From: Bilabrum cf. latius
Taxonomy: Eukaryota
Direction: 5' to 3'
Assembly: GCA_965178125.1 (NCBI GenBank)
Contig: OZ237737.1
Span: 744,001-808,000 of the forward strand
DNA length: 64,000 nt
The first letter of the stretch is position 1, and every line of letters begins with the position of its first letter. Positions 7,553 to 46,860 of the stretch are shown here, piece after piece. The translations under genes and the position numbers were made by a program. The notes below the pieces were generated by a model. That model was not told the DNA's origin and made no database searches. It saw nothing but the letters and a program-made list of their open reading frames with translations.

Positions 7553-10500
7553 TCAAGCCCTCCCATAGTACACGGGAAGCTCAAAGACTGCAGTGGTCAC
7601 ATTCGTCCCACCGCGACCGCCGTCGAAGACAGCAGCATCACCTTGGTCCGCCGCGCACCGGTAGATCTGGTCCATCGCGTTGGCCAGCACGAATCCCGTC
7701 GAGTTCGTGAAGCGATACACGGCGTTGGGTCCCATCGAGGGGTACGAAGGAGGGCCTGCTGCGCTCCCCGTGTTCACCAGTCCCCCGTGCCCGATGGAGG
7801 AGAAGCCCGTCGAGTCCCTCACCCACATGACAGTGTCGAGACTCTCGCTCTTGACACCGTACACCTCCACGTGGCCCACGTCCCTGAACTCGCTCTGCGC
7901 CTCGCAGGTGCAGTGCTCCGAGTTGAGCTGGTAGAAAGCCACACGGTGCTGCCCCGTGCCCGACACGAGCATCTTGCGGTACAGGGGGTGCTGGTGCTGG
8001 GGGGCGCTGTTCCTGTGCCCGTCTTCCTGGTACCACGTGTGCCACCGGAGCTCGTCGAGCCCACCCGCGTCGTCACTCGAGTCCGCTGAAGTCGCAGTAC
8101 CCTCCGCCGTGACGGTCGCCAGAGCATGCGCGTACCCTGGCGCCTGCCAGAAAATGTCAGAGCACCTCGCGTTGAAGAACCACGAGCCGCACACTGGCAC
8201 ATTTGTGGCCCACACCTGCCTGGCATTGCCGTAGGCAGGCATAAATGCCCCCGCGCGGGCGTCAGCCGCGCTTGCGTTCTTCTGACTTCCCAGCGTCCAC
8301 TGGACGGCTGACACGTTCACGGTCGACAGCGGGATGGTGATCTGCAGCCCGAACAGCGCCGTGGTAGGGCTGCTGCCAGGGCCTGCTGCAGGCTCGGGAG
8401 GTGTTTGCTGCACTATGCTGCCGTCATACTCGGCAGCTTCACCCCCGAGCAGCAGCACTGGGGGTGCACCGGGGTCCACAGCAGCCGGTGCACCGGGTCG
8501 TGGCCCCTCGAACATCGTGTTGTTTGGGACCAGCGTGACGTACTGCCTTGCGATCCCGCCGATGCTGACGCCTGCAGGCACGTGGATCGTCCTGCTCACG
8601 CGGTAGGTCCCGCGCGGAAGAAACACAACCCCGCTCACCTAGCCCGCGCTGCGACGCGGACTGCCACTGTTTAGCTACGCGTACGCAAGCTTGACTGCGC
8701 GCTCGAGGGCGTCCGTGTCATCGGTAACCCCGTCACCCAGAGCGCCTGCGTCTGCTTTCGCGTTCACCGCCCCCTGCGTCCAGGGCCCAGGGAAATTGGC
8801 GTTCGAGCCCCATGAATGCCTTGCCAGCAGCTCCTCCACGCCAGCAGCAGCGGGAACTCCCACGGTCACGTTGTACACGGACGGAATCGCCTCCCTTGGC
8901 TGCTTCCTGCCGTCCTTGTACGTTGGCATGGTCAGGTGTTGCTGCGGGCAGGGAGATTCGTCCCCGAAGAAGTCTACCCCAACTGCCAGCTCTGCCACGT
9001 GCGTCCACTGGCCAGACTGCCTGCTGGACCCGGCAGCCAGCTTAAAAGAGTCCGATCCAGGTCCGGTGGCGTTGGTCACCTCGACTGCAACGTAGCTACC
9101 AGTCCATTCGCTCCAGCTGTGAGCGCCGCGGACAGCCCCGCGCGAGCCGTCACCTTGCCCCTCCACGAATACGTTTCTCAGGTACAGCGATCGCTGGGAC
9201 TGCAGCACGCCCGCCCTCTTCCATGGCCCCTCTATCCGCCCCTCTGACAGGCCCAGGGTGCCTGACTGCCAAGCCTCTGCCTGCTGATGATTCACAGAAG
9301 GAGGCAGCTTGTTGGGGCACGCACCGCCGCTTTCAGCCTCCGAGGGGAGCACGCCACCCGCCCCTGTAAATCCACCGGTTTGCGCGCCAATGACGGCTGG
9401 TCCCTGAGTCATTGGCCCCGCCTGTGCGTGCAGACCTGCCATGGACAGCGTCTCTAGCCCGGCGTGCAGCAGCCCGGCACAGCTGCTGTTGAAGATCCTT
9501 ACGTTGGAAGCAGTGGGCGCAGGCTGGGACTCCCTCGCGTCGAAACCGATGCGAAACCCCGATACGGTCAGGTTAGAGTGCGCGCCCCCGCTCCCCGAGC
9601 AGCCCTGAATGCCCGCAAAGGCGTCCCCCGCGGGGTTGAATGCGGCCACGTCCTCCAGAGACGACCCCTGGGCGCCACGCATCCGAAACCCAACAGCCCC
9701 GGGATTGTCCTCGCCGATCAGCACGTCGATGGACTAAACCACTGAGCTCATAAGAATGCTTGACTGCAGGCTGTTCAGGTGGTTTATCATCGAGGCGTTC
9801 AACACAGCAAGGGGGTATGCAGGGGGTCCGGAAGCGAATGCCGGCGTGCTTGCCGGCACCCAGATGGTTGCCCTGCCTTTCCGTGGCAACGCATCGTGAG
9901 GCCCGGCATCTCTGAGCACCTGCCCTCGGATGTTTGGCGTGCGGAACCGGTTGTTGTAGTTCGATGTTGCTGCGAGGACGAGCGTGGAGGCATGCACCAT
10001 GACCAGACATTACATGATGCACGCTTCAAGTAGGCCGGGGAGCACGGGAATTGCACACAAAGGCTTCTTACTGTTGTGCGCTGCAAAACCATTAACTTCC
10101 ATCCTCTGGCGCTGGATGGCCCTCAGTCCATCGGTCACCTTGTACACGCCGGCTGGCAGCCAGACAGACATGTAGTTGTCCATCGCAAAATCGATCGCAG
10201 CCTGCAGCGCCAGCGTGGAGTCCTGCGTCCCAGCCGGGTCGGCAGCGAACGGAAGCTTCGTCACGTCCAGTACTCCGTCCGCGGTCCCGGCATCCCAGCC
10301 AGTCGCAGCCCCTGGCTGGCCTCGCTAGTGCCACGTGCCCATCTGTCCGATGTCCCACGAGATGGTGCCGCTCTGGTCCGAGATGGGAGCCGCGACACCT
10401 GCCGCAGCACCGGGTCGGAGCGTGTTCGCGACAGACACAGCGCCTATCGACACGTTTCCTGCGCCCATGGCTTGCGCCCGCAACACTGCCTCTCCAGTGG

Positions 10501-21031: not shown

Positions 21032-22955
21032 ATGGCAGCAGCATCGGGATCAGGGGCAAGCGCATTCGAAGGCACTGTGTCTAAACCATGGACCCTGAAG
21101 GAATGGACAGAACTTCAAGGACATGCCGCTGAAATTGAGCCCTTGCACCTCCGCGATCTTGTACGTGTGAGGTGCTTCTCAGAACATTCGGATTCACTTT
21201 CTATGGCACCGGTATTCCGACCTCGATACTTCGCGAGATCCTTAAACTGTGTCAAATTGCCCTTTTGTCGATTTGCAGGACGAAAAGCGGTGCGCCTAGC
21301 TCCGTGCAGAAGCGCCCGGCTTTGTTGTGGACTACTCTCGCCAGCGAGTGACCACCGACACCATGAGCAAATTGTTTGCCTTCGCCAAAGCAGCGGGGCT
21401 CCAGGAAAAGATCAAGGCTATGGCAGAGGGCAAGAAGATAAACGTGACTGAGAACCGCGCCGTGATGCACATGGCCCTCCGGGCACCGAAGTCCAAATTG
21501 GGCGCTTTCAAGGTGGATGGCAACGATGTCGTCGCCGACGTGCACTCCGTGCTCGACCGAATCAAGTCTTTTTCCGAGGACCTGCGCTCAGGCAAGTGGG
21601 TGGGCGCCACGGGCAAGCCGATCAAAAACGTCATCTCGATCGGAATCGGAGGCTCGTACCTCGGCCCCGAGTTCGTGTTCGAGGCGCTCCGCCGGCAGCC
21701 CGAGTGCGCGGGCGCAGCAAAGGGCCGCACCCTGCGATTCTTGGCAAACGTGGACCCAGTGGACGTGGAACGCGCCACGGAGGGCCTGGACCCCGAGGAG
21801 ACCATGGTGGTGGTCGTGTCCAAGACCTTCACCACGGCCGAGACTATGCTCAACGCGAGGACAATGCGGTCCTGGCTGCTTGCCGGCATGGGCGAGGGCA
21901 AGGACGAGGCAGACGTCATCGCGAAGCACTACGTGGCGGTGTCCTCCAGCGTAGACAAGGCGACCGCCTTCGGGGTCAAGGAGGAGAACGTGTTCGGGTT
22001 CTGGGACTGGGTGGGGGGCAGGTACTCCGTGTGCTCCGCCGTGGGGGTACTCACCCTGTCACTGCAGTACGGCTTCGACCAGATGCGGAACTTCCTGGAC
22101 GGCGCCGCGCAGATGGACGAGCACTTTATGACGGCGGCTCCCGAGTCCAACCTGCCGGTGCTGCTGGGGCTGCTGGGCGTGTGGAACTCCACCTTTTAGG
22201 GGCATGGATCGAGGGCGCTCCTGCCCTACTCTCAGGCGCTGCTTCGGTTCGCGGCTCACATCCAGCAGGTCGACATGGAGTCCAACGGGAAGAGGGTGGC
22301 GGTCGACGGCACGGAGCTGCCGTTCGACGCGGGCGAGGTGGACTTTGGTGAGCCAGGGACCAACGGGCAGCACTCCTTCTACCAGCTCGTGCACTAGGGC
22401 CGCACGGTCCCTGCCGATTTCCTCGGCTTCTGCGAGCCCCAGACGGATCGTCTCGGGGAGGGCGAGCCGGTGAGCAACCACGACGAGCTGATGAGCAACT
22501 TTTTCGCGCAGCCCGACGCGCTGGCCAGGGGCAAGTCTGCGGAGGACCTCGAGAAGGAGGGCGTCTCGGCAGAGCTGATCCCACACAAGACGTTCCCGGG
22601 AAACCGTCCCTCCACGTCGATCCTGATGGACCGCCTGGATGCCTTCTCCTGCGGGCAGCTGCTTGCGCTGTACGAGCATCGCACTGCGGTGCAGGGGTTC
22701 CTCTGGGGCATCCCCAGCTTTGACCAGTGGGGAGTGGAGCTGGGCAAGGTGCTGGCCAAGCAGGTCCGCGGCACCATCCAGGGAGCCAGGTCGGCCGCAT
22801 CCGGTAAGGAAGGTGAGGGAGCTGCAGCCGCGGTGGATGCGACGGTGAAGGAGGGCGGATACAACCCGTCCACGCAGTCGCTGCTAGGGAGGTACCTCAG
22901 GTCGAGGCTCGCGGGGGGGGCGGCGGCGGGGGCTGCCGCTGGCGGTGGCAAGTGA
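21032..22955 (+). CDS. GPI: Glucose-6-phosphate isomerase (cytosolic type)
   Basis: HLRDL, intron about 21167..21278, [103 protein letters not shown] at 21297, 22197 and 22395; TGA 22953-22955. Confidence 0.97.
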
Positions 22956-23079
22956 ACGGATTTATGTATGCGGAGTCTCCTTGTGGGTATGCCCAATTTT
23001 ACGAAGAAAATGGCTTGATCTACCTCTGTTTTTGTGACTGGCACAGCTGCATGCACCCACGTGAACGAGAGCCCAGAAT

Positions 23080-24509: not shown

Positions 24510-24668
24510 TGTGGTATGCCTGCAGTGCTAACTGCTCTGTTACTATATTGCAAGTGGCGGACGCCAAACGTGCTCAGCTCCCTCTCCGTATAATTTTGGT
24601 ATTTGAGCAGTGCGCTTTTGGCACCAGACTCGACCCGGGTCCCGCAACCTGCGCGGGTAACACCGACA

Positions 24669-26147
24669 TCAAAACCCCGCGCCCATTTCCCTGCAGATGA
24701 CCCTGTACCTCTGCGCGACCTGCTCCGGCACAGCCTCGTCCCCGTTGATACCCTTGTCCCACAGCATCCTGGCGTGCTTCTGAAACGCCAGTGCGACGCG
24801 ACGGGCCACAGCAGTCGTAGCACGACCGGGTTTGATGTCAAACGCACGCACGGCAGCATCGGAGTGCAGCCTGGGGTCGTCCGCCCTGGCTTGCAACACA
24901 AGGCCCAGGTCTGTTTTCTCCGGCCGCCGCACAGGACTGCCCTCCGCGGCTACGGCCTTCAGGCACCTCATAAATGCGGTTCGCTTCAAGTTTACGTTCA
25001 CAAAATGGTCCGTGACGTTGAAGTTAAGCAAGGGGTCGTTCACGTGGGGCAGCAGCGCGGTGGCAGCCCGCGCGCCGACCGCCGAAGTGTACGACTCGTC
25101 TGCCGACACGGTCGCGTCCCTGAACAGCTGCAGCTCAACCACGTGATCTACCTGCACTGCCCTCCTTGCCTCGGGGTTTGAGGCTCGGATCCTCTCAATC
25201 TCCTTTCGTTTGATGCCCGTGTACACGTCCTCGTCCCCCCGCGCGTCGAACGTCCGAGCCGCGACCCTCTTGTACACGGTGTCCCCTCGGAAGACGGCGG
25301 GGTTGAGACGAACGTACCGCTTCCTGTACTTGCCTGCCGCGCTCAGAGGCTTCGCTGGCTTGGTGGATTTTTTCTTGCCCGACGCAGGGGACGCCGCCGC
25401 AGCAGCAGCCCGCGCCCCACCTGTGGCAGCCCCGCCCGACACGCTGCTGCCCTGCCCCAACTCCTCATCCTCCTCCTCCGATTCGTCCTCCTGGTCGGTG
25501 TCTAGAGCGTCCGTGTCGGAGCTGTTCTCTCCATCTGAACGCTTGATGCCGCCACTGTAACCATCACCGCCCGTGGCTGCCCCGCCACCGCCCGGGCTAC
25601 CGTGGGGAAACCTGCGCCCAGCTCCTGACCCCTAGCCGGCACCAGATGCCGTTCGCCCGTGCGACACTCCCATTGAAGGACCGTCACTTGGCCGGCCGCT
25701 GGTATCTACCAGAGTTGGTGCATTTCCGGGGCCGACGACAACTCCACTGCTACTTGCCGGGATACTTGCTGGCTTTGAATCACTAGACGTCGGCAAAAAC
25801 CAGGCCCAGGGTAGGCAGCCACAGCATACGTCTTCATCTCGCACTTCTGTATCAGAATGGTGCGGATCTCGCAACCCGGCAGGATCTGCTCCAGATTTTG
25901 GACCACCAGCGCCTGAGTCGTGCGTTTCGTTAGACCCAGCTCCAGCACTATCGTGTGCCTTGCTTTTCTACTTCCCCAAATTGCTATGCTTTGAAGATAT
26001 TTCCACGAATTTATGTGTTGCACGTCCTGAAGAGCCGTCATCAAACGAGATAGACACCTGCTTTGGGTGAACACCCACAATGCTGCCATGTTTTCCTTTA
26101 TGTGTACCCCCTGACACGCTTACCCTAGCTCCAACTGCAAGAGACAT
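24669..26147 (-). CDS. Hypothetical protein with N-terminal KOW/SH3-like motif and C-terminal DHVVELQ (HNH-like) domain, about 492 aa
   Basis: ATG 26147 gives MSLAVGARVSVSGGTHKGKHGSIVGVHPKQVSISFDDG. The C-terminal region has DVYTG..VQVDHVVELQLF..LNFNVTDHFVNVNLK. TAG at 25968 and 25632; TGA 24669. Confidence 0.7.
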
Positions 26148-26404
26148 TCTACGTTTCTATTCTTGGACTGCTTGCTGCACTCTCTGGAGATAATGTGGTC
26201 TCTGGTCAACATCTGAGCGCGTTCTTGAATCGCTCGTCACAAGTTGGCAGATTCGCTCGAGGTTCCGCAAACGTTGCGGCGCCGTGGTGTGGTCGTGCTC
26301 GGCTCAACGGACAACGCGAGACACGATCGTCGACATTGAATTGTTTCAGACCGGTACTATCGTACTAAATAAGTCTGTTTAATCGTTAAATCCGCTAAGT
26401 TCAG

Positions 26405-27577
26405 ATGGACAGTGCTGCAGTGAACCTGAATCCAGCACCGGCGGCTGTCACAGAATTGCTTTCTGCGATCCAAGAATTCCAACAGGCCGCCACGAGCGCG
26501 TCACCATCGGCAGACTTTGCTGGAACTGTAGGTGATGTGAACAAGGTCGCTGGAGAATGCATTCGAGAATTCAGCTAGGCCTACGGAGTGGCATGCAACC
26601 AGCTCCAAGAGTCAGCGTCCGCTCAAGCAGACCCGGACTCTATTCGTCGTGAAATTGTGAAGCAGCAAGGACCAAAGTACGACATTGTAGCAGCTGTTCG
26701 TGCATGTGGACGTGAGATCGACGCGTCGACCGAGGCCTCTGCGGCTTCGCTTGCGAGCGTGCCTGCTCTCTCTCGAGCACAGTGCTGTGCTGCCGTCGGA
26801 CAGAGTCGAATCGCCAAAAGGCTTGCTGCGCAGCTGGAGCTCGTTGTATGGCGTACGTTTGACTGGTTCGACTCGATTGCGAGCTAGTCCTTTGCGGGTG
26901 GGAACGATGAGCCAGATGCAGATGACATCCAGGCATCTCGAGAAGAAAGCACCAAAGCTAGGCTGCAGAAGGCGACAAGAGACTTATAGGACTCCTCTTG
27001 GGATATCCTGGCTAGCGCCGCCCTGCTCCGAGCGTTCGCCAAAGCATTGATGGATCCGCTAGCGCCTTTGGCTGCCGGCCCGTGGCACGAGTGGTGCAAG
27101 GAAGCCGGGAAGCAGATGAGCACGGGCTCCAGCCCCGCTCCTGGGCCCCTCGAAAGAATTACCCAGGCGATCCAGCGGGCGAACGAAGACTGCGATCGCA
27201 TTGCAGCTGCAAGATCAAGTCCGTTTGCGGATCCCTCCGCACTGTTGCCTGCGTCCAGCACCTCGGGAGTAGCGGGCAGCACCTCGGCCGACAGCACGAC
27301 TGGAAATGGGAAGGTTGACATAGCCCATGAAACGGGTCAGAATTAGGAAGATGCTGAAGACAGCGCAGCCCTTGCATCGACGGACCAACAGGGGCCAAGG
27401 GGGGGCGAAGCAGCAGAGTCCAAGGCCTTGGAGCCTTCTGACGTGCTACCAAATGGGCCGGACTACAGGTCGCCTGTTATAGAGGCAGGAAATGAGCAAA
27501 TCAAGCAGCAGGAAGGCAGCGATGGCGGCGGTTCCGATGGGCCACCACCTGCCGGCTGCGGATGCGTAATCTCCTAA
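26405..27577 (+). CDS. Hypothetical protein (390 aa) with C-terminal CaaX prenylation box, terminated by TAA
   Basis: ATG 26405; frame broken only by TAG at 26576, 26885, 26987 and 27344; ends PPPAGCGCVIS-TAA (27575-27577). Confidence 0.75.
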
Positions 27578-27934
27578 GCTGCTGTACGGTGTTTCGAGCA
27601 TCGCAGCATTTCCTACTTGTTAGACATGCACGTGCCTGTTATGTATCAATTGATGCCCTTATTCAGTACATTGTCCGGCGCTACGCCGCACTTCTTCAAG
27701 AAACCAGATTCCGGAACCTCCGTCTAGGCCTACGCGGCGCCCGGCCGCGGATCCATCATGTTGCGACCACCTGTGCATCGCGCGAGCAATAAGGTTTCGC
27801 CGTACTCCTGCTGTCTCTAGAAGATACAACGAGCCCATATGGATGACCTGTAAATAGTAGCTAAGTTATATAGTCTAGGGCATCTCACGAAAAGCGGCCT
27901 CAACTGGCTGAACGAGAAAGGACACGGGGCCGTC

Positions 27935-30900
27935 ATGAGGTTTCTGACGGTGTTTGCGCTGCTACTGTGCAGTCATGTTGCAAGGTAAGAGCACATCTAT
28001 ATATTTATATGTTATGACATATCATCTTGTTGTCTTGACTGTGCTCAGCCCTTGCCATAGTAAAGTCCAAACTCGTGGCATGCCTCGGCACAAGGATTTG
28101 TGCGTAGTACTGCCCTTGAAGCTGGCCATCTGCTCGTCCTGCACGACTCTCGCAGAGCTACTGCAATAATTGCACCTGAACTGAGCGGTGTAACTTTCTC
28201 AGTGGCGGAAGGAGCCGCAAATGGCACCGCAATCGGCCCTATCATTGCTGTGGTGAACGCCACAGGCGCCGTGCAATACAACCTTACAGCACTATTCAAG
28301 GGCGGAGGATCTTAGGTGGTACTTGGCAGCAGTCCATTTGCCTTGGTTCCATCTGGAATCAATGCAACAAGAATCGTTGCTTCAGAAATAGCAACGGACT
28401 TTGAAGACGTCTCGTCGTACCAGCTCAACATATCAGCTACCGCCAATGCATCCTCTGTGATGTTTGCTGTTCCCGTCACGGTTTCGAATGTGAACGAAGC
28501 TCCTGTCATCGCCACGTCGCCGGCCGCAGTGTGCAACATCTCGGAGAACTCACCCGTGGCGACAGCGTGCCAATTCAACACCACCGGCGGCTTGACTAGC
28601 TAGCTGTCAGCGACGGACGTGGATGCCGGCGATACGATCTCGTGGTCACTGACTGGGTCCTCTGTGACCGGGGGCTTGTCTTGGTACAGCATCAGCTCCA
28701 GTGGAGTGATCGCGCTGACCGCGGCAGGCGCCGCTGCGTGCGACTTTGAAAATGCCACGGCGAGGGCAGTGGACCTGACCGTGCGAGCCGAGGACGGGGG
28801 CGGCCTGTTTGACGAGTACCTTGCGCGCGTTCGAGTTTCGAATGTGAACGAAGCTCCTGTCATCGCCACGTCGCCGGCCGCAGTGTGCAACATCTCGGAG
28901 AACTCACCCGTGGCGACAGCGTGCCAATTCAACACCACCGGCGGCTTGACTAGCTAGCTGTCAGCGACGGACGTGGATGCCGGCGATACGATCTCGTGGT
29001 CACTGACTGGGTCCTCTGTGACCGGGGGCTTGTCTTGGTACAGCATCAGCTCCAGTGGAGTGATCGCGCTGACCGCGGCAGGCGCCGCTGCGTGCGACTT
29101 TGAAAATGCCACGGCGAGGGCAGTGGACCTGACCGTGCGAGCCGAGGACGGGGGTGGTCTGCTTGACGAGTACCTTGCGCGCGTTCGAGTTTCGAATGTG
29201 AACGAAGCTCCTGTCATCGCCACGTCGCCGGCCGCAGTGTGCAACATCTCGGAGAACTCACCCGTGGCGACAGCGTGCCAATTCAACACCACCGGCGGCT
29301 TGACTAGCTAGCTGTCAGCGACGGACGTGGATGCCGGCGATACGATCTCGTGGTCACTGACTGGGTCCTCTGTGACCGGGGGCTTGTCTTGGTACAGCAT
29401 CAGCTCCAGTGGAGTGATCGCGCTGACCGCGGCAGGCGCCGCTGCGTGCGACTTTGAAAATGCCACGGCGAGGGCAGTGGACCTGACCGTGCGAGCCGAG
29501 GACGGGGGTGGTCTGTTTGACGAGTACCTTGCGCGCGTTCGAGTTTCGAATGTGAACGAAGCTCCTGTCATCGCCACGTCGCCGGCCGCAGTGTGCAACA
29601 TCTCGGAGAACTCACCCGTGGCGACAGCGTGCCAATTCAACACCACCGGCGGCTTGACTAGCTAGCTGTCAGCGACGGACGTGGATGCCGGCGATACGAT
29701 CTCGTGGTCACTGACTGGGTCCTCTGTGACCGGGGGCTTGTCTTGGTACAGCATCAGCTCCAGTGGAGTGATCGCGCTGACCGCGGCAGGCGCCGCTGCG
29801 TGCGACTTTGAAAATGCCACGGCGAGGGCAGTGGACCTGACCGTGCGAGCCGAGGACGGGGGTGGTCTGTTTGACGAGTACCTTGCGCGCGTTCGAGTTT
29901 CGAATGTGAACGAAGCTCCTGTCATCGCCACGTCGCCGGCCGCAGTGTGCAACATCTCGGAGAACTCACCCGTGGCGACAGCGTGCCAATTCAACACCAC
30001 CGGCGGCTTGACTAGCTAGCTGTCAGCGACGGACGTGGATGCCGGCGATACGATCTCGTGGTCACTGACTGGGTCCTCTGTGACCGGGGGCTTGTCTTGG
30101 TACAGCATCAGCTCCAGTGGAGTGATCGCGCTGACCGCGGCAGGCGCCGCTGCGTGCGACTTTGAAAATGCCACGGCGAGGGCAGTGGACCTGACCGTGC
30201 GAGCCGAGGACGGGGGCGGCCTGTTTGACGAGTACCTTGCGCGCGTTCGAGTTTCGAATGTGAACGAAGCTCCGATTCTCAGCTTGCCCGCTGACGCAAG
30301 TTTGGTCGTAAGAGAGAACAGCCCTATCAACACAGAGATTGTCACCATGTCTTCAACGGATGAAGACACCGGTGATACTGCAGCGTTTGGTATCTTTCCA
30401 CCGCGTGGAGACTCCTTTGATTGGTCATCAGCAGGAAATGATCGACTGTTTGGGGTCGTGGTCTCAACCGGTGTTGTGAGGACGACGTCAACAGTGCTGG
30501 ATTTCGAGCGTCTGCCATATAATGGAAGTGTGCTACTCACATTCGGCGTAACGGATGCCGGCGGACTACGCTCATCCATTTCCAGGAACGTATCTGTCAT
30601 CGATGTGAACGAAGCACCCTTCTTCACGCCCCTCGATTAGCCCAATGTCACCCTCACTACCGGGTACGACATGGCCGTCCTAGAGAATGCCACGGCCACC
30701 ACGGTCCTTGGCTCCGTCCGCTGCTCAGATGAAGACACCACACACAGCGGACAGTCCGAGTACGCTTTCGTGCAGTCAGGCTCCGGGGCCTCAGCTGTGC
30801 TCGGGCAGGTAGACCCGCGCGGCATGTACCAGATAGACAGCAGCAGCGGCACCGTGACTTTGGTTTCGCAGCCAGTGCTGGGCCACGAGAACGCCACACG

Positions 30901-33900
30901 CAACGCATCGGACCTGATCGTGCGATGCACAGACCCAGGCCTCCCGTACGGCGGACCTCTGCGAGCGGAGACGGATCTTCGGGTGCGTGTGCTGGATGTG
31001 CCTGAGACGCCTGTGCTGCAGGACCAGACGCAGTGGCTGTTCGAGAACGAGCCTGAGCTGACGAATCTGCGGCCCGGTCCGTTGGGCGGCATCGACGAAG
31101 ACGTCGGGGAGACAGAGCAGCTGACGTATGAGCTTCGGTCGGGCAGCGCTGTGCTGGGCATCGGGGGTTCATCGCCAGTAGTGTCGGTGGTTGCATCGAC
31201 CGGGCAGCTCCGTCTGAGCCGAGCAGGTGTGTTTGACAAGGAGAACGTGACGACGCGCGCGGGATGGGTGATTGCTCGTGCGACCGACCCGACAGGTCGA
31301 TTTGACGAGGCCAACGTGACGATCGACGTGCGGGACGCGAACGACGCACCCGCGTTCCCCGCCAATGCAGAGGCTCTCTACACCTTTTAGGTTCAAGAGA
31401 ATAGCGCCAATGGTACCAGCGCAGGTACTCCAGTCCTTGCAACAGACCCCGACGTTAGTGACATTGGCGGCCTCCGCTATGCAATCAGCCGTTGGTGGAT
31501 CCACGGGGGCATGCTGGACGGAAGATCGTCCTTGGTCAACCCCGGGAATGCTGCTCGTCTGCAGCTGATCATCGACGCGTAGTCCGCGTAGTTGAGCGTG
31601 TTACTGGCCTCTACAGATGAAGAACTCTCGCGAGAGGCGACATACTAGTACGTTGCGGAAGTAGTTGTGACTGACAGAACTGGTGCGACAGACGCGGTGA
31701 ATGTCACCGTGAACATATAGGACGTTGCAGAAGCACCGGTGATCACGACGACAAACCGCACGACGTGCACTGTGCCTGAAAATTCCGTGCCAAACACCCC
31801 CTGCTCCCTCTCATCCGGGGGCATCCAGCTGGCATCGATCGATCAAGATGAACGTGATCTCCCTAGCAACATGACGTACATCATCGACTCAACTGTCCTT
31901 GATGGCAGCTTTGGATACTTTCAGGTCGATGCTACTTCTGCTGCTCCACTCGGCCGGCATGGTGCCATTCGCCTAACTCCCACCGGGGCTGCAGCGATCA
32001 ACCACGAGGACGAGTCGGTGGATTCCTTTGCGATACTTGTGAGGGCAAGGGATCCCGGAGGCCTACTGTCCGAGCCGGTTCAAATCAACATCGTTGTGTC
32101 TGATGCCCAGGAACTTCCGTACGTCGTGCCTGGTCAAGTGTTCTATGTTTCGGAAAACAGCCCAATCAACACGCGGATTGCCGGCAGCGTGGCGGCTGTA
32201 GATCCAGATCAAGCAGATGAGAGCAATCTCCAGCTGTCGCTGGTTCAACCGCGTGACGATGGAGTAAGCTGGGCAACACCCAGCTCTTTCTTGTTTCGAA
32301 TAAATTCCAACGGGGTATTGCGCGTTGATTCTAACGTCCTCGACTTTGAGCAGTGGGAGCAGCTGGCTGGCAGGAACGGGACACACAACCTAACTGCCAG
32401 GGTTCAAGACACGACAGCCAACTCTACGACTGAGTGGTTCTTAATTAGAGTCATCGATGTGAACGAAGCACCCTTCTTCACGCCCCTCGATTAGCCCAAC
32501 GTCACCCTCACTACCGGGTACGACATGGCCGTCCCTGAGAATGCCACGGCCACCACGGTCCTTGGCTCCGTCCGCTGCTCAGATGAAGACGCCACACACA
32601 GCGGGCAGTCCGAGTACGCTTTCGTGCAGTCAGGCTCCGGGGCCTCAGCTGTACTCGGGCAGGTGGACCCGCGCGGCATGTACCAGATCGACAGCAGCAG
32701 CGGCACCGTGACTCTGGTTTCGCAGCCAGTGCTGGGCCACGAGAACGCCACACGCAACGCATCGGACCTGATCGTGCGATGCACAGACCCAGGCCTCCCG
32801 TACGGCGGACCTCTACGAGCGGAGACGGATCTTCGGGTGCGTGTGCTGGATGTGCCTGAGACGCCTGTGCTGCAGGACCAGACGCAGTGGCTGTTCGAGA
32901 ACGAGCCTGAGCTGACGAATCTGCGGCCCGGTCCGTTGGGCGGCATCGACGAAGACGTCGGGGAGACAGAGCAGCTAACGTATGAGCTTCGGTCGGGCAG
33001 CGCTGTGCTGGGCATCGGGGGGTCATCGCCGGTGGTGTCGGTGGTTGCATCGACCGGGCAGCTCCGTCTGAGCCGAGCAGGTGTGTTTGACAAGGAGAAC
33101 GTGACGACGCGCGCGGGATGGGTGATTGCTCGCGCGACCGACCCGACAGGTCGATTTGACGAGGCCAACGTGACGATCGACGTGCGGGACGCGAACGATC
33201 CTCCCGTATTCACGACGAACAACACGTTCGCCTTCGAAGAACACCACCCGGTGGATGGAACAGCCGTTTTTACCGTCATGGTATCGGACCAGGATGCCGA
33301 TGGGATTACCTACCACATCGACAACTGGTTCCCAAGGACAGCGGTGCTGAGAAATATCTCTACTGGACTGCAGATGCCGCCACTACGGGTCGTGACAGTT
33401 TCCGGTGGGGGACCTGATGGCTTGAACATTGGCTAGCTCCGCCCCACGATTGATTACAACTTTGAGGACCCCACGCACCCCCGGAGCGGCTGGGTTGACG
33501 TGCGTGCCCAGGACGACAACCGCCTTGGCAAGCACGCCGGACCCCAGAGTGCCACAATGCGCGTGAACTTCGTCATCACGAACGGCTAGGACAACCCAAC
33601 TGCTAGTCCGGAGCAGTTTTTTGCTGTTGCAGAGAACAGTCCACCAGAAACGCCGATAGGCCGGGTGCTTGCTGCTGATGAGGATGCGGGCTCCTAGGGG
33701 CAGTCCCTTGCGTATCAGTGGGTTGAGGAGAGCGGAAATGCCCTCCGTTGGGTGCACCTTGATAACAGCACCGGAAACCTTACTTTGCGATCGGCTCCGG
33801 GATACCCAGCAGTTACCATTTGGCCTGGTCAACCAACTGGGCTTGACCACGAACGAGAACCCGTCCTGCGAGGTGTAGTTCTCGTGAGTGATTCAGGTGG

Positions 33901-36900
33901 CCAAGCATCTGATTCTGGGTCGCTTCAAGTCTTCGTGAACGTTTCGATTGCGGTACTGGACTTGAACGAGCCTCCAGTGCTTGCACCCAGGACGGTATAT
34001 TTGCCAGAGAACATGGCCACACCTGGTGGCGACGGTATCGGGAGAGGTCAAGCTGCGGTAGGATCGCGTATCCAAGCAAACTGGACGGACTGGAGATACA
34101 CAGGTATCAACGGACGAACGAAGTACGCCTCTCGAGTGGATGAGTACGACAGCATATTGCCTTCACTCCAAGATCACTTGGATTCTGCCGTGTTCGCACT
34201 TGATCCGGATTTTCCCGGCGATCGCTCGAGTCAGAATAACTACTAGCCTCTGCGATATGTGCTGCACATGCTGGAAGGACGCGGGTATACCAATGATGCC
34301 TTGGATGGGAACAGCACGACGTGGACGCCGTAGAACGCAAGCGTAGTTCAGTTTGATGTAGACCTGGCCCGTGGGCTGTGTGAAAATGATACGCTGCGAG
34401 TCGCAACTGCTTAGGCTGAGGGGTCTGAGGCAGAGAATCTGTACTGGCAAGTGGGCTGTGATTACTTTGGCGTAGGAAGATCGCCCAGTGCGCGATTTCA
34501 GTTTGAAATCGAGAACTTCGGACCCGAAGCCGTGATCGGTCCGAATCCCACGGCCATATCAGGCAATGACACTTTTGTAGGCTACGACAACGCTTGCACG
34601 GCGAACTTAGCAGAGTATCTGGATTTAGTAGAGGCAGGGGTGCTATCCAGTCACATGGAGGCTGGTAACTTTACCTTGTTGCCCCAGTGCAACTTCTCGT
34701 CCTTGGTATCAGACTCAAAAATGGCGGTGCAACGTCTGTATCCGTTCTTTCTTGGCATCCATCCGTCATATGGCATGATATTCCTGGCAAATGGAACTTT
34801 GAATGCCGAGTTTAGGGACAGTGGTCACGAGCCATTCTACCAAGTGCTCGTCTCCGTGTACGACAGCCCACGGGCTGCAAGTGGGAGCAGCCCGCTGCAG
34901 CCAGAGCGCCTAGTGTAGCGAGTCGTTGTGAATGTTAGCATTGTCGACGTAAAGGAACGTTCATTTGTTGAGACTCTTAACGGGGAAGCAGACTTGCTGG
35001 GTCAGGAGAGTGCCGAGTTGGGGTAGTACATCGACGAGAGTGACGTTGGAAGTCCACCATCGGAGAATGTCGGCTTGCAGATTTTCGATGAGGACGACGA
35101 AGACCTCTACATTTCCATCGAGACAACGTAGGAGCTACCAGACGGGCAGCTTGTCCAGATGTTTGGAATTGAGGGTCTGCAACAGACCTACAAGATCCCG
35201 CGTCCGCCAGGCAGGGGGGTTCCAAGACCACCTGTGGGCGTCACCGCAATCGACGACCTCCGCTCCGGGACGCACCAGGTGGAGATTCGAGTGCTGGATC
35301 CTATCGATTTTGACGAGGTATTGTCACCGGCATGGAACACTACGACGATTGCGAGGGCGCCTGTGCCCCCGGAAGAAGAGGGTGCCCTCGGTGAGCCCAT
35401 TGTATCAGCAGAGGCGGATGGCACAACGAGCTTGCTCCTGTCCACCCCCGCTACCCCCCTTTCGATTGCCATTGAGGACAGGAATGAGCCCCCAGAGTTA
35501 CGAGTCGGATTGTTCCCAATTTTTGTCCCGGAGAATGCGACGGCAGGCACGGTGCTCGGGATCGTACATGGCGATGATCCAGATATGTTCCAGGACCTGA
35601 GCTTCTCCGTCACTGGTACACTGCAAGAGTATTTTGAGCTACGCCCTATCCTAACCTCGGAAGCGGACCACCGCGCTTTCCTGGAGTCCGAGAAATTGCT
35701 GAAGGAAACGGAGGCAATCCCGTGCGAGGTGCGCGCCAAGTTTGCGAGGCAATCCGGCATCGTCAGGAGTGCCGAGCTTGTGCTCGCATTGGATGCCCTG
35801 GACTACGAGTCGGTGAGAGCATACGGCGTCGACATAAATATTCAAGACGATGCGTACCTTAACATTCTGCGGAGCTCGATAGGCAGCGGGCTGCAGCAGA
35901 GGTACAGCTTCTTGGATCCGCGCGGGAACACAATACCTGCCTGCGTGGGCGACCAGCAACCCGTTGCCTACCAATACGACTCTCGAGATGCCATCTAGGA
36001 CGTTCAAGCGAATGGAAACCTCGTAGTCGTCACTGATATTGACGATGTGCCGATCGTGGAAGAAATCTTCACCACGAGCCCTGCAGGGCTGGGCACTGGA
36101 GGCGGTCAGTCTGTAGCTTTCATCGGAAAGAATCTTGGTTCGGGCGTTGCACCAGGACCAAACATTCCTTTCGTAGTTTCAGCTTCCTACATGAATGCGC
36201 AGGGCGATTCGTTCCTCTTCCAGGACTGCGTTGTTCGCGAGGCTCACGTGCGGCTGGCTTGCTCCTCTGTGCCGGGGTTCGGCTCTGGGTACCGTGCTAG
36301 GATCTGGATGAACGTGCTCCAGAGCCAGTTGGGGGGTCTCGACGCCGGTGGTGACTTTTCTACTCCTGTCAATGAGGCTTATCTGAACGGCCAAGGACTC
36401 GAAAAAGAAGTCCCGCCTGCCGCCTGGAGGGCATTGGAAACTACTGGGATTGTTGCTCCCTCAACTTCAACTACCCAGGGGCAGGCAGTGATTGCACAGT
36501 AGGCCTCTAGGAGACGGGTAGTTCAGTTTTCCAACTGGACAATAGACTTGATAACATATGCACCCCCTTCCATCAAGAGATTCGATGGTCCTGGAGCCAT
36601 TGACTCCCTCACGACCGGCGGTCAGCAGATCGACATCATTGGGACTGATTTTGCGACGATTTAGAGCCAGCAACTGGAGTCTGTTTTCTATGGTCCAGCT
36701 GGTTTTGAGTATTAGGCCTTGAATTGCTCCGTAACACAGGACCACCAGCGGATTTCGTGCACAACCGTCGAGGGTGTGGGCGAGAACATCCGCTGGGTTG
36801 TCACGGTGGCTGGGCAGAGATCAGAGACGCCTACCACCTAGTACGAGGTGCCAGAGATATCGGACGTCGTTGTGGTTGGCAACGATCTCAGGGTGCTAGG

Positions 36901-39900
36901 CAGAACTAGCGGCATTTGCAACCTGAGCCTTTCGGAGGTGATGCAGGATCTGCAAGACGGCTGGTAGTCGAATCAAAACACCACTCAGGCAGACGTGGAG
37001 TACACGTCGGGTGTGACCTTCCTAGACACCGTTGGATAGGAGCTCTTGTTCATATGTGGATCTGGTTTTGGGCCTTCCAATGCATCGACCGGGAACCAGG
37101 TTGATGATGTTACCTATGGCTTGGTAAATGGCTTTGATACAGGCGGTCTGGCAACTTTTGACGAAGTGGTGCAATTCCGAGCGGATGACTGCATCGTCGC
37201 AGTATCACACCAGGTGATCCGGTGCATCACTTCCGGTGGCGTTGGTGCGAACTTGCAGGCTCGGGTGACGATTGCAAGGCAAGTCTCCTAGCCCTCGCAG
37301 GCTCTATTGAGCTACAAGCCCCCCAAGATATTGGAAGCTGTCGTGTCAGCAACTGGGGCTGGAGGTGCTGGGGCAGGAGAAGCGCCTACCGCAGGCAACA
37401 ACGTGCAAATCCAAGTAAGTGGTGAGAACTTTGGGTCTAGGTTGTTCTAGCCAACAGTGCGGTACGGCAGTACCACTGGTAACGCGAGCAGGGCTGAGGC
37501 CGCAATCCAAGCAACTAGTGTTAATCCGATAGGCGAGTCACTGGTGACATTCAATTTGCCGCCTGGTCATGGCAAGGCATGGCCCTTGGAAATCGAGTTG
37601 CGAGGCTAGGTTAGCGAGACACACTTGGGCTTCGGATACTCCAGGCCTCACATGACTCGTATTGAGTACATCAGTGGAACTCGCGATCAGCTCCCGATCC
37701 GGCTGAGGCTGTTCGGCCGAAATCTTGGCGAATGTTGCTGGCTGCGACGCATGGCTGATCTGGGTGGCGTGTACGGAATCTACAGAAATGGCACTTCCTT
37801 TGCGGCAAAACCGGAGGTCTATGATAGCCTCAAGAGCGAACCGTGGCTATTGAAGCGCGGCAAGCTCTCCGATAAGGACCTGGAGGACCTTGGAGGCAAG
37901 CATAATCCTCCCTTTTGCGATACTGACCCTACTCATCCGATCTGCGTAGAGACAGATTTGGCTGATCCTCCCCAGTTCTCCAAAAGGTCCCTGGAGTAGA
38001 TTAGGAATTGTCGTTGCTACGAGCCGCACGCATTCGATCATGTCCCGTCGGACTCGCCGATCATACCAGACATCAGAAATCAAGCAGTGCTGGCTTCTCC
38101 TTGGCGCGAGCGCGTTTCGATCATTGATGCGCCCGGCACTGGCGACAATGGCACCATGAATTTGGAGCTACAACCCCTGGTAAATAACACAGAGCAGCAG
38201 TCTGAATGTTTCATTACTAGGGTGACGGATTCGGCAATCGATTGCTTGCTGTATCGGTTAAGTGGTCAGATGACGGTGTTCATCGGCGGGCAAGCCTCCA
38301 CCGGGCAGGACGCATTCGCCGATCCCAGCGAATGTCCGATTCCCCTAGACGTCAATGGGGAGTGTGGGGTGGATGCCCTTGCCTTCAGCTATTCTGATGT
38401 CAGGAATGCTCCGTCCATCGATACGGTGAATACCTATCCCACCGCTAACCGTCCCATACCAACCACAGGCGGTACTGTCATGTTGATCCAGGGTTCGAAC
38501 TTTGGACAGCAAATTGGTGACGTTGAGGTACGGTGGTACCGGCCAGATCAGTCAGACGCTGAGTAGCCTGAAAGCGTGTCACTCCGCAGCAAGGGGTTGC
38601 TATCCCAGGCCAATTGGACCGATGGGGATATTTGGTTCGTCACTCCACCGGGATACGGAAGGACTCAAGTTGTCGTTAGCATCCCTGGCACGTTCCCGCC
38701 GAAAACTGCCTCTAGTTTCTTTGACTACAGCAACCCTGAGATAACTTCGCTTGAAAACAACGCGGGACCTACCAACGGATATCTGCCCGATCATGTACGC
38801 GACTCGCTCAGCTCTAGTTCAACTGTCACCGATGACTTTGATGTTTATCCCAGGCCCAGCCCCGATAACGACACATGCGAGCCGGGGGAGGCTCGATAGG
38901 GCAAGCTCCCCTGCTGGAAGGATTCCGCCCTCGTACAGGGAAAGCAACTTGTGATCAACGGCAACAACTTCGGCCCGCCTCCCACTACGCTCCGCTTCGG
39001 CGAAACCTCGACTAGCAGGACCATCGCAGGAGTAACAACCACTATCACCGGGAAAGACGGGAAAGAGCGGCAAGTAGACTACCCTCGCGCCGATTTCGAG
39101 TTTTGGTACAACCACCCAGACGAGGCAACGCGCAACTCTCTGCGGCAAATCGTAGAAGATCTCAGGGCCCTCGACCCGACCACTGGCGCATACGGCACCC
39201 TGCAGATCCGACTGGAAGGTTTGAAGCAATCCCTGAGAGAGCAAAGGCTCGAGACCCTCTCACAGCGTGGCACAACGGAGAACTACGTGGAAGTCGGTGG
39301 CCGTCTATGCCCCCACTCCTTTTGGGATAACACTCGCATTGTGTGCAAGCCTCCAGAAGGCACTGGCAATAGCGCAGTTGTTGTACGCGTCTTCAATCGC
39401 TAGGGTGGCCCTGACGGGTCATATACTGGAAGTGGATCCGGCTGGACGTATGTCTACGATAGCCCCGTAGTAAAGCACGTGTACATGGAGGCTGACCCTG
39501 GGCGTCCCACCCACGGTACCACCGACGGAGGCGAACTCGTCATCTTGGAGGGCCGAAACTTTGGGCGGTACTTCAGTGAGTCCACGATACGGCCTCAGAT
39601 CACCATCGGGTCTCTCGACCCTATCGATGTGGTAGCTCCTCTGAGGACGAATCCGGCCACCTGGTACCACAACCGCTTGGTATTTCGCTCCCCTGAAGCA
39701 ACTCAGCCCGAATCCATGGGTGCAGAGATAAATATCACAGTGTCGCTCGGTAATGTGCAGTCAGAGCCAGTTGCTCTGTTTGGCTTTGACCCGCCGATCA
39801 TCACAAGCATCCGCGAACGCGTGAGTCCTCAGGATGATGATCCTAACGCCGGATGGGGTTCGGTGTTGATGCCAGAGTGGGAGCGCGTGAACGTCTCGTT

Positions 39901-42900
39901 GGGTTCCGATGGCGGTTGCGACCGGGAAGGTGCGACCAAGCCAACGGATTGCTTGCGATGACGCGCATACCCTCTCTGTGTTCAGGAGAGGGGCGGAGAT
40001 TGGGTAATTTTTGAAGAAAGTTCCTGCTCCGTTCATTTAACATGAACAGCGCCGGTAGCCATCGGATCGACCCGGCGGCGCGCGGGGCAGCAGGCAGCGC
40101 CAGGGTGATCGCCGCAGCTGCAGTGTTCGCTCGCGCGGTAGGCCAACCTGCGGTCACGTTGGCCGATTTAGCTACTCGATATGGTATGAATGATGCTGTG
40201 TTCTCGGATTTCATTGCTCGTCTCAACGTGCAGCGCGACACCATGGCACCTCGCGATCCCGATCTTCGACGTTCACACGATGCGGGGTTCCTGTGCTACT
40301 TGCTCGACAGGTACTCATCAAAGCAGTCCTTTACGGCATCACGGTCCATTAATGCTGTCAAGAGCACCGCTCTCGCCAGGTTCGTGTCAAATGGGACGCT
40401 AACGACTCTCGGTGCACGGCTGCTTCTGCCGGCGTCGCCGAGCTCTCAGAGATTGGAGTACAAGCCCGATATCGAAACCACGGAAGACTGGAATGTGTTC
40501 TACTTTGATGCCCCTAATATCTCCTCTGTCTCTGGTGAGATGACGTCCAAGCTTTCTAGTGCCAGACTTCTGGGCATGGAATCGACGCAGTGGGGCTACG
40601 CACGTAGCTAGCGAGCTATTCCATACGAGGACCAACGCAGTTTGCTGTCCACAAGACGCTCCAAGGCACCTCAAGCGCAACATTGGAGGTAGCTGCAAAC
40701 GGCAGAAGGGGCAAGTGCACGCACACCGTGGTATCTCGAGTACCAGGATAGGTTGCGCGATGCTCGACACAATGCGAGCACTCCAGACCACGTCGTTCGT
40801 GTGAATGCGATGGAAGCAGTCATCGTGATTGAGGGGTTCAATTTTGGCAGTAGAGAGAACGATGTGACCATCACCATCGGTGGGCAAAATTGCGGTCCAG
40901 TCGACGACACTCCATTGTGGAAAATCACCGGAGACACGCCGTTCCTCGAGTGCCAAGTAGGGGGCCTAGTCGTTGGTCATCATTAGGTAGAAATCACAGT
41001 TGCAAACCAAGAGGTTGTGATTCCACCGGGAGAGTCTGGACTTTTCGCTGAGTGTCCAAAGAATTTTTTCGCAACGGAAGAGGGTGTGCACGATTGCATC
41101 CCGTGTCCGAAGTGTACGACTCCAACTTGTGAAGCAAATGGCCTGACCGACGACGAAGCCAGCTTCTGCGACGGAGGGACAACTGCGCCCTATTCGAGGG
41201 CGAAGTTCTGGTTGTACAATGGCACAAACAGAATTAATACCACAAGTACCCGAGGCTTCGCTCTCGACGTGTGTCTTCCAGTATTGGAGCAGCTGAATCC
41301 TTGCCTGCCAGACAACGAATGCAAGGCAGGCTACGTCCAAGAGAATGCCTGCAGCGTCTGCATGCCTGGGTTCCAGCGAGATATTATTGAGAAAACTTGT
41401 GTTAAATGCCCAGAATAGCCTATTCTCTTCATGATCTTGCTGCTTGGGGCGGCTCTGATCGTCGGTGTTCTCCTGTTTGCTCTGTACCGTGTGTCGCCAA
41501 GCGTCGCGGCAGCATCGGTGGCTCTCGATTTTTTCCGTGAGTATATGACTAGTTTGTGCTTATCCTATTTTGCTACAGATGTGAATGCCCTTTTGGTCCC
41601 AATATGTGTCTCTCTTTGCCCCGCAGAAACTCTGAGTGTGATAGGCTCCCTGCCATTGAGCTACCCTCCTGCGCTGGCCGCACTGTTCTAGTATGCCCAG
41701 GCATCTGCCTCGAACGTAGACGCAGCCTCTCCGAGCTGTGCTGCAGCCAATTTCGGGTACATCGAGGCCTGGATTTTTAGTATGAGTCTGCCTGCCTTAG
41801 TACCGGTATGTATTATTGTCGCAAATCTGGTTGTGGTAGCGTACAAGCTTGCTTGCAGGACAAGTGCTGGTGATTAGAGGTCTCTGTGGAAGCACGCTGA
41901 CGCTGGCTTTGGTTTCATCATCTTAGCGTGGCTATTTTTGTACATCCTTGTGGTGAGCAAGGGATTTGAGATTCAGCAGTGCAGAGAGACAGGGGACGGT
42001 CCCGTTCTTCGCGCTGATCCTGAAATCCCGTGCGGAGACGAGCGACACAATGCCTTCGTGTTTGCTGCTAACGTGCTGCTCCTTCTCTATGGAATCGGGA
42101 TTCCGCTGCTGTTTGGCGTCTTGTTGTGGCACTATGGTCCTGCGATTTAGTACGACCAGGCCCTCAGAGAGCGTGGGTTGGCAGGCTCGAGGGACACGAA
42201 CGCTTTCTTTAACCTCGGCAAGCGCTTGCGGCGGCTGTATTTCAAGTACAGAGCCGACGCGTACTACTGGTCTGAGCTTATTTTACTACGCAAGGCTGTA
42301 CTTGTGGTGATTGCGGCTCAGCTGCTTGAGAAGCCGCTGCTAGCAGCGTCCTCAATTCTTACGTCACTCTTTGTTGCGTACACGCTGCAGCTAGTGTACT
42401 AGCCTTACAGGAGCCACACTCAAGAAAAAGCGAAGCAAGACGCTCAGAAGGCGAAAGAGACACAAAAACAGCTTGAGGCTGCTGTTCTGGCCACGGGCAA
42501 GGTGTCTGCAGGCCAAGCCGCCCGAGTCGTCGCGAGTGCAGTAGCACGAATCGGTGAGGGGTCTGCTTCGCCGATCCTGGAGTAGGATGGCAAAGGGAAT
42601 GGGACAGGTGCTGCTGGGGCTACTTCCGACACAGAGGGCACAAGTGGGAAGAGTGGGAAAGCTCGTCGGGCAGTTCTGTTTGGGCAGGGCTCTGGCAAAG
42701 GTGGTAAGGGTGCCTCTGCGCTTGGCAGAGGAGGAAGCGGTTCCGGCGCAATGAGGATGGCTTCATCTCAACTTACCTCGGGGAGGAGCAGGCATGGGAT
42801 CAGTGAACTTGCCGCTCTAAAGGGTAGCGCGATGGAGGCACTGGCAGTTGCGTCGCCACTGCACGGTACCCTGCTCAAGAGATCAGCCGTGCGCTCCCGT

Positions 42901-45900: not shown

Positions 45901-46568
45901 GGGGCGATATGTCCATGTAGCGGAAGCTTCAAATCAGAGAGGCTTAGCGACGCCGAACCATGAAGGCTATGCGGCGAGCCTCCGCATTCTAGAACCAGGC
46001 CATCGCTGCGCTTGGCATGCCCATGGGTCCACAAGCAGGTGACGTAGCCAGTACGTCTGAGATTGACGGCGCCAGCAAGCTCAAGGCTACCGATCAAAGC
46101 CTAGCGAAGAGCAAGGCTGCTGATAGGCTGGCTGCGATTGGGACTGGACGGGCAGGCCGACACCACAAGGAAGCAGATCCTGTCCGCGGCGAGGCCGTGC
46201 GTAACCCTCTTGCTATCGGTGCGGCGAAGGCGCAAGCTGGTGGTGGCGAGGGCGACGGTGGGGATGCGAATCCGCTGGCGGGATTGTCGCTGGCGGACGT
46301 CTTTCGCCCGGTCGATCAGACTTCGGACCAGGTAATGCGTCCGAAGACCAATCCTCTATTCGCCACCTCTGCTACTCGTTCGCAAAAATCATCCTCAGCA
46401 CCATCAACTGAGAATCTAGGTGAGTCTAGCGGCGGTACAGCTGAATAGATACGGCGGGTATCGTCCTTGTCTGGCTTCAGAACTGACACGCGTCCTGAAT
46501 TGCTGCGCGGCCGAGGCAGGCGATCCAGGCAACAGCGAGCTTCGCGCGCTGCTTCTGAAGAAATTTGA
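27935..46568 (+). CDS. Giant nonagonal-type cadherin A: signal peptide, cadherin repeats, IPT/TIG repeats, Cys-rich region, 9 TM, C2-like domain (about 6000 aa)
   Basis: Signal peptide MRFLTVFALLLCSHVA. One uninterrupted frame 28157..39929 if TAG is sense. Cadherin Ca-binding motifs (xEN, DxD, DFE/DYE, DVNEAP), IPT motifs (GG..V.I.G.NFG), and nine hydrophobic segments from 41420 to 43915. Introns 41537..41626, 43549..43649 and 43731..43829, plus a 5' intron from 27985 and an unresolved junction near 39930-40090. About 59 TAG; TGA 46566-46568. Confidence 0.85.
28481..30272 (+). repeat. Intragenic tandem repeat, 5 x 354 bp, each unit one cadherin domain (118 aa)
   Basis: gtttcgaatgtgaacgaagctcc recurs at 28481, 28835, 29189, 29543, 29897 and 30251. 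The only differences I saw between units are at up to 3 positions in the EDGGGL(F/L)D codons. Confidence 0.97.
30596..33198 (+). repeat. Dispersed intragenic duplication of about 750 bp (30596..31344 and 32450..33198; two cadherin domains)
   Basis: Both copies begin gtcatcgatgtgaacgaagcacccttc and end gacgcgaacga, offset 1854 bp (a multiple of 3). Differences are few and mostly synonymous (MAVLEN/MAVPEN, DEDTT/DEDAT). Confidence 0.95.
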
Positions 46569-46860
46569 TGATAACATTGAATTAAATGATAATGCTCATC
46601 TTCTGGCTCTAAAGAAAATGATTCTAATGCAGTTTATCAAGTTTACCAGAAATCTAGCCATAGACCACGGGTCCTTGGCAGCACGTAGGCAGCTGAGGTT
46701 CTAGGATAGCAACTTCCATCCGCCCGCTCTAAATCCTACGTTGGATCGAACCGGACAGATGGAAGCCGCCAATTGGTATCCAAGCACCAAATAGTAAATG
46801 CCTTCCACGAGCTGCGAGGTCACACATGGTCATTGGCCTAGCTTCTCTTGCATCGCAGCT

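Follow-up and report, generated by a model that had tools for sequence, protein, structure and literature searches.

UAA and UAG nearly always shift meaning together, and the published exceptions in which UAG encodes Gln on its own are one fornicate and three ciliates. The fornicate Iotanema spirale reads UAG as Gln, keeps UAA and UGA as stops, is predicted to have followed a tRNA-Gln(CUA) route, and carries T32G in the GTS motif of its eRF1 (PMC5304391). The same meaning of UAG has been reported for the ciliates Hartmannula sinica, Trochilia petrani and Protocruzia tuzeti (PMC11687900, PMC10089648). In five recoded phyllopharyngeans the stop of 86.9-98.3% of genes is UAA, and it was argued that UAA is locked as a stop there (PMC11687900). 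UAG alone has likewise been reassigned, with UAA retained as a stop, in the rhizarian exLh and TARA phyllopharyngean MAGs (UAG = Leu in both) and in Scotinosphaera (UAG = Ser), and the literature already documents an uncoupling of UAA from UAG in several nuclear genomes, Iotanema among them (PMC5304391). A sense UAG with UGA as the main stop is also found in the table 6 code of ciliates, hexamitids, ulvophytes and Amoeboaphelidium, in which UAA and UAG are both Gln, and in the oligohymenophorean PL0344, in which UAA is Lys and UAG is Glu (PMC10553269). The stramenopile branch Opalozoa harbours another oddity of termination in Blastocystis, whose stops are finished by polyadenylation without any change of codon meaning (PMC10690189). 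No nuclear reassignment in stramenopiles was found in the largely open-access literature covered, which included PMC6723347, PMC12152300, PMC11412368 and PMC10120064.

Here, we analysed 64 kb of intron-containing eukaryotic DNA of ~59% GC (the window), which very likely comes from the nucleus of a GC-rich heterotrophic stramenopile, a relative of Cafeteria that lies outside that genus, with a code of the table 15 type: UAG encodes Gln, and UAA and UGA are stops. Once TAG is taken as sense, 14 genes open up, the longest ORF running to 5,712 codons. Pfam supports glucose-6-phosphate isomerase (GPI), a RIOX1-type JmjC protein, a nitrilase, an amino-acid transporter, a GH3 protein, a pectate-lyase-like protein and two cadherin/TIG proteins, and 8 of the 18 translated pieces have no Pfam match; the RIOX1 and nitrilase identities were confirmed by PDB alignments. 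ARAGORN detected no tRNA gene in the window, Rfam returned no match and no rRNA, and eRF1 is not among the window's genes. The code is that of I. spirale, in an unrelated lineage in which TGA dominates (13 of 14 gene ends) whereas UAA is the primary stop of I. spirale (PMC5304391). UAG makes up 15.8% of the Gln codons here (121 TAG in 19,059 curated codons), compared with 18.5% in H. sinica; like the recoded phyllopharyngeans, this lineage has close relatives with the standard code, but the UAA lock proposed for them appears to be absent (PMC11687900). In contrast to table 6 and PL0344, which read UAA as sense, UAA is missing from exons here and is most likely terminal in one gene, and unlike those of Blastocystis the stops are DNA-encoded, with UAG as sense. 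The novelty lies in the lineage and in how seldom UAA serves as a stop; this is probably the first stramenopile nuclear case of a known rare code.

Features of the window discussed in the text (positions are those of the window; tabs separate the columns)
Feature	Positions	Strand	Basis or remark
TGA stop (6641-6639) followed by TAA (6638-6636) as first 3'UTR codon	6636..6641	-	ORF 7580-6639
102-nt GT-AG intron of the pectate-lyase-like gene; removes in-frame TAA 10012-10010	9970..10071	-	X5 RNA
GT-AG intron of GPI with in-frame TAA at 21243	21167..21278	+	joint in X5, X7
TAG of GPI in a Gln column; unedited in RNA	22395..22397	+	120/120 listed homologues Gln
Intronless 390-codon gene, orphan protein	26405..27577	+	ORF from ATG 26405
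In-frame TAG 1, residue 58; fragment P0179 begins just past it	26576..26578	+	
In-frame TAG 2, residue 161; fragment P0179 stops at residue 160	26885..26887	+	
In-frame TAG 3	26987..26989	+	ORF reading
In-frame TAG 4, 77 codons upstream of the TAA	27344..27346	+	ORF reading
Cys-Gly-Cys-Val-Ile-Ser: CaaX-like box CVIS (27563-27574) and upstream Cys	27557..27574	+	predicted prenylation/palmitoylation signal
TAA most likely terminal for the 26405 gene, the only TAA-ended gene in the window	27575..27577	+	
Putative 3'UTR of the 26405 gene	27578..27654	+	RNA contig end computed from bin mean depths
GT-AG intron of the cadherin gene (ATG 27935) with in-frame TAAs 27986 and 28061	27985..28155	+	joint in X5, X7
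Long cadherin/TIG exon	28156..39961	+	35 TAG, 47 CAA, 0 TAA in 3,839 codons counted
TGA-TGA-TAA ending the first cadherin-family gene	46566..46574	+	
5,712-codon cadherin/TIG/membrane/WW exon	46861..63999	-	21 TAG, 0 TAA, ends TGA

The distinction from table 6 is carried by the absence of TAA from coding sequence. All curated exons together (19,059 codons) contain 121 TAG, 147 CAA and 496 CAG, but no TAA, against 35.9 expected (p 7e-13); the expectation is 40 when derived from GAA/GAG and 29 from AAA/AAG. TAA is nevertheless available as a word, since the same exons hold 163 TAA and 205 TAG off frame. Exons beyond the RNA-covered stretch are predicted, with ORF breaks bounded by TGA or GT-AG introns, and the RNA-covered exons gave 27 TAG, 38 CAA, 120 CAG and no TAA in 4,240 codons (8.6 expected; Fisher p 1.6e-3). 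For this coverage, four of the 17 listed runs (X5, X7, X9 and X11) were aligned to 8450-28400, that is, 19,951 of the 64,000 bases. None of the runs is recorded as RNA; X5 and X7 were treated as such because GT-AG introns kept by X9 and X11 are skipped in both (21167-21278, 24171-24264, 24351-24435 and 27985-28155; X5 additionally skips 9970-10071). All four in-frame TAAs inside RNA-covered gene spans (10012, 21243, 27986 and 28061) are intronic, and introns thus account for the apparent in-frame TAAs. Taken together, these results exclude TAA from exons and UAA from the Gln codons, and table 6 is rejected, which bears out two claims made from the letters of the window before this analysis: that exons lack an in-frame TAA although CAA is used, and that the code differs from table 6.

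TAG, by contrast, is sense and unedited in mRNA. Five X5 contigs include 18 TAG codons, none of them with any other letter, which excludes sequencing error and RNA editing at the level of the contig consensus. Its identity as Gln is strongly indicated by a Codetta-like profile decoding of TAG in which all Gln-type codons were masked: Gln came first for the window genes (n = 39; 0.9 versus -14.1 for the next residue) and for recoded metagenome loci (n = 14; 7.3 versus -2.9), and in the pooled data it stood ~30 log units ahead (8.3 versus -22.2). The amino acids of exLh and Scotinosphaera differ, with Ser at -30.8 and Leu not top-ranked here. As a control, sense codons came out right in 56 of 59 and 55 of 57 cases; the columns of the window set are noisy, and CAA itself narrowly decodes there as T ahead of Q. 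One of the GPI TAGs lies in a Gln column, and the columns of the other two are mostly Ala and Leu. In the cadherin genes, three of the eight conserved columns bearing TAG are Gln, many single columns being uninformative, and a self-comparison of the cadherin repeats gave no clean TAG/CAG pair among 77 directed pairs (22 TAG/TAG, 10 Lys and 7 Gln). Among three metagenome contigs that are 55-65% identical to one another (L024, L028 and L033), TAG faces CAG or CAA in 4 of 12 directed pairs, compared with 20 of 51 for CAA itself. TAG is also passed through in GPI and RIOX1, which are essential genes.

A CaaX box (Cys-aliphatic-aliphatic-X as the last four residues) is a prenylation signal, an upstream Cys being a palmitoylation signal, and it requires exact termination at the C-terminus. 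The sequence-only reading had described a gene at 26405 that passes four TAGs and ends in GCGCVIS followed by TAA. We indeed confirmed this by reading the frame: the ORF holds exactly four in-frame TAGs and no other internal stop, and positions 27551-27577 spell Ala-Gly-Cys-Gly-Cys-Val-Ile-Ser-TAA, so that CVIS forms the final four residues and matches the CaaX definition. CaaX-like tetrapeptides number 14 among the 19,805 residues translated, a rate of 0.07% per position or ~1% over the 14 gene ends, and of the 425 TAA triplets on both strands of the window only the one at 27575 is preceded by such a motif, the pattern for these counts having been fixed after that site had been seen. The coding/non-coding model scored the gene at +0.086 per codon and the extension past the TAA at -0.17, which is like other 3' flanks (-0.07 and -0.25). 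X5 depth is flat at 36.7 over 26432-27097, and the X5 contig spans ~26321-27654 as computed from bin mean depths with one contig per bin assumed; the RNA contig of the cadherin gene begins at 27799. The 26405 message therefore apparently ends ~77 nt past the TAA, with no other in-frame stop. Further downstream, the same frame contains a TAA at 27851 and no TGA before it reaches ATG 27935 of the cadherin gene, and a table 6 reading would therefore give a 4,461-codon cadherin fusion. The alignment of a syntenic relative (X9 and X11, ~90-92% identical) breaks 25 nt ahead of the TAA, and for four genes that end in TGA the corresponding breaks lie at +10, +3, +8 and -27 nt; conservation thus stops at this TAA and does not run on for hundreds of bases. 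Together, the CaaX-like motif, the RNA contig end, the non-coding extension, the break in conservation and the fusion that would otherwise result argue strongly that the TAA is terminal, and it is most likely that the 26405 gene ends there.

The protein encoded by this gene is an orphan. Its single-sequence structure model, of low confidence (pLDDT 45.9), predicted a helical stretch at residues 11-270, and the sequence also has an acidic low-complexity tail and the C-terminal CaaX-like box; the protein is taken to be helical and probably membrane-anchored. Foldseek gave no match to this model at E 0.001, Pfam no match to the sequence and the protein atlas no result; no homologue was present among 8,000 word-sharing candidates, and none of 308 pattern matches in metagenome contigs was confirmed. 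Among 1.84 billion representatives a single homologue was detected, the 99-residue N-terminal fragment P0179, which is 87% identical to residues 62-160 and extends exactly from TAG 1 to TAG 2. The relative that carries it has a table 11 stop at residue 161, the same place as TAG 2, and the recoded sites are therefore common to that relative. The comparison with homologues that had been proposed for the CVIS end thus reaches residue 160, short of the C-terminus.

Among the 14 gene ends of the window, 13 are TGA and one is TAA (95% interval for TAA 0.2-34%), and the three gene ends in two recoded metagenome contigs (L028 and L034) are all TGA (0 of 3 TAA), giving 16 of 17 TGA in total. TAG ends none of the 17, ends being defined under TAG = Gln so that a terminal TAG would be hidden. 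Terminal TAA had been claimed at two sites in the window, the second in a TGA-TAA tandem at 6639. The tandem is present, but TGA terminates that gene and the TAA belongs to the 3'UTR, so that the site at 27575 alone remains. TAA within three codons past a stop was seen twice, compared with 0.31 expected (p 0.04), an excess that is not significant for spans of one or six codons; tandem TAA was rejected as a sign of stop function since the excess is marginal and too weak. Dominance of TGA stops is the trend expected in a genome of 59% GC, and the low share of UAA (~7% here) may reflect only GC content. At ~7% of ends, the proposed barrier to a later capture of UAA would be removed.

Several features of the genes are recorded here in their own right. 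The two giant genes at 27935-46568 and 46861-63999 are convergent and combine cadherin repeats, TIG, cysteine-rich and multi-pass membrane regions; the second ends in a WW domain, and in the first there are five 118-residue repeats that are nearly identical, together with a block of ~245 codons present in duplicate whose differences are mostly at silent sites. The family is receptor-like and present across many protist contigs. In the first gene, at a place beyond the RNA coverage, the reading frame is interrupted by TGA 39959 and continues in a different frame (39900-40450 of the window); the first 140 codons of the ORF after 39959 look unrelated, pointing to a long intron, an insertion or an assembly problem. 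Long low-complexity insertions lie within the domains of the nitrilase (11644-13008) and RIOX1 (18484-20907) and are not introns, as the RNA contigs are ungapped there. A 200-base N gap (3338-3537) lies within the GH3 beta-xylosidase-like gene. A single X5 contig covers both RIOX1 and GPI (18434-23025), and a second one extends over the ends of both genes 24669 and 23080; such bridging suggests a genome dense in genes, with UTRs that overlap or are very short, and the contigs do not prove a single transcript.

The source of the window is likely a bicosoecid-like opalozoan, a single-celled flagellate of marine type. GPI matches are of stramenopile type, with up to 68% identity and no Cafeteria among the 120 matches listed, and in a FastTree tree of GPI, from which three long fused rows were left out, the window falls in an open fork. 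The giant cadherin/TIG protein of 46861-63999 has its best named match in Cafeteria roenbergensis (50% over 2,151 residues; 60% in the C-terminal region), and in the family tree the window shares a clade with Cafeteria (support 100 and 98) and branches outside the group that Cafeteria forms with P0131, a placement drawn from one paralog-rich gene family. The Cafeteria relatives are stop-free ORFs of 3,400-7,600 residues with ~3% Gln and no sign of recoding.

A scan with the family alignment gave 61 cadherin/TIG loci (58 metagenome and 3 genome), of which five were scored as recoded and 55 lack TAG in conserved blocks; L058, in which no conserved block was scored, was kept out of both sets. The five recoded contigs (L022, L024, L028, L033 and L034, from two datasets) open only when TAG is sense and contain 62 TAG, 98 CAA and no TAA in 12,069 codons (18.7 TAA expected). 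An ABC-type gene of L034 and a 988-codon gene of L028 also have in-frame TAG, each with a TGA end. These contigs belong to other paralog subfamilies than the window and are at most candidate members of its clade. No relative of the cadherin family was found in viral contigs. As side observations from the same scan, L059-L061 come from a record titled as a Proteobacteria MAG and carry genes of the cadherin/TIG family; the tree places L059 at a distance of zero from Cafeteria proteins, which reveals eukaryotic contamination in a species-representative bacterial genome, and P0141, labelled 'archaeon', looks like an error of the same type. In L005, L017 and L035-L038 the longest ORF lengthens when TAA, or TAA and TAG, are read through (2,011 to 3,705 in L005; 1,272 to 2,934 in L017); with 0-2 stops in conserved blocks, this is probably due to introns.

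We propose that UGA would end most genes in this lineage and UAA a small minority, including the 26405 gene, where the TAA would put CVIS at the C-terminus for its predicted prenylation. A duplicated tRNA-Gln(CUG) would have mutated to the anticodon CUA, which would pair with UAG and not with UAA, and UAG would thereby have been captured alone. It has been pointed out that CUA is the sole anticodon able to read UAG while ignoring UAA, and that it is one mutation away from tRNA-Gln(CUG) (PMC5304391). The eRF1 would have kept its recognition of UAA and UGA and either lost that of UAG or been outcompeted there. Loss, which the sequence-only reading took to be implied, is not forced, because an eRF1 with little change could still lose out to a tRNA-Gln(CUA); the eRF1 of exLh has no obvious change in conserved motifs (PMC5304391).

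The closest competitor of the table 15 reading is that UAA has been nearly vacated, being a weak or leaky stop that no tRNA reads, with an eRF1 largely UGA-specific as in table 6 ciliates; the lineage would then stand in transition from the standard code to table 6. This is partly compatible with our explanation, and we regard it as unlikely. TGA at 16 of 17 gene ends is what it would predict, compared with UAA at 86.9-98.3% in the five recoded phyllopharyngeans (PMC11687900). In 50 non-recoded related contigs, moreover, the longest plus-strand ORF is often TAA-ended, even at 67-70% GC (L001, L045 and L050), a rough control in which some ends are introns. However, the TAA at 27575 comes directly after a motif that depends on exact termination, the putative 3'UTR contains no backup stop, TGA dominance is expected from the general trend at 59% GC, one TAA in 14 ends carries the wide interval given above, and, as a weak point, TAA twice occurs just behind TGA stops.

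The remaining alternatives fare worse. UAG might be context-dependent as in Condylostoma, encoding Gln inside genes and stopping near the mRNA end, with an eRF1 that reads all three stops; a terminal TAG would then be hidden as a short extension by the way in which ends were defined, and bifunctional stops have been reported in ciliates (PMC10089648). Such a code is very improbable here, as the last ten codons are TAG-free in all 14 ORFs, conserved ends (the WW domain, an Fn3-like domain and GPI) reach TGA, and TAG never occurs within six codons past any stop. An ordinary table 6 code in which TAA is merely rare and CVIS-TAA arose by chance would agree with the nearly universal TGA ends and would be the commonest nuclear variant (PMC5304391), yet it is scarcely credible: no TAA was found where 36 and 19 were expected in two data sets that freely use CAA, GAA and AAA, and the 26405 mRNA would have no stop before its apparent end or would be fused to the signal-peptide start of the next gene. 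That the TAGs come from sequencing error, mark pseudogenes or are edited to CAG in RNA has next to no chance of being right, given 18 TAGs unchanged in RNA contigs, a stop triplet at residue 161 that is common to the relative, and passage through TAG in GPI, RIOX1 and other genes of an essential kind.

With the table 15 reading preferred, the finding has consequences for annotation and for the evolution of the code. Table 1 annotation shreds these genes, the sole database trace of the 26405 protein being a 99-residue piece, and table 6 annotation would fuse TAA-ended genes to their neighbours. A wider interpretation is tentative, and we doubt it more than we hold it: that no earlier code change is known from stramenopile nuclei and that the lineage is a surviving halfway stage on the stepwise route from the standard code to table 6, with UAG captured and UAA left on a few percent of ends, where little would hinder its capture. 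The clade would be wider than one species, given the 90-92% identical relative and the five recoded metagenome contigs, and, as kin of Cafeteria, could be the missing host type of giant viruses with TAG = Gln and with TAA and TGA as stops. Code 15 is among the codes fitted to giant-virus genomes, all isolates of which are from standard-code hosts (PMC13524828), and Cafeteria hosts the giant virus CroV (PMC8547959); the host link could serve as a lead. A further independent origin supports the idea that a CUA anticodon allows UAG to be captured alone. With UAA at about 1 of 14 ends here and about 9 of 10 in the ciliate cases, the lineage, for which RNA and DNA runs as well as close relatives are available, permits a test of a two-step origin of table 6. 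It also permits study of how eRF1 distinguishes UAG from UAA, for which Cafeteria provides the standard-code comparison.
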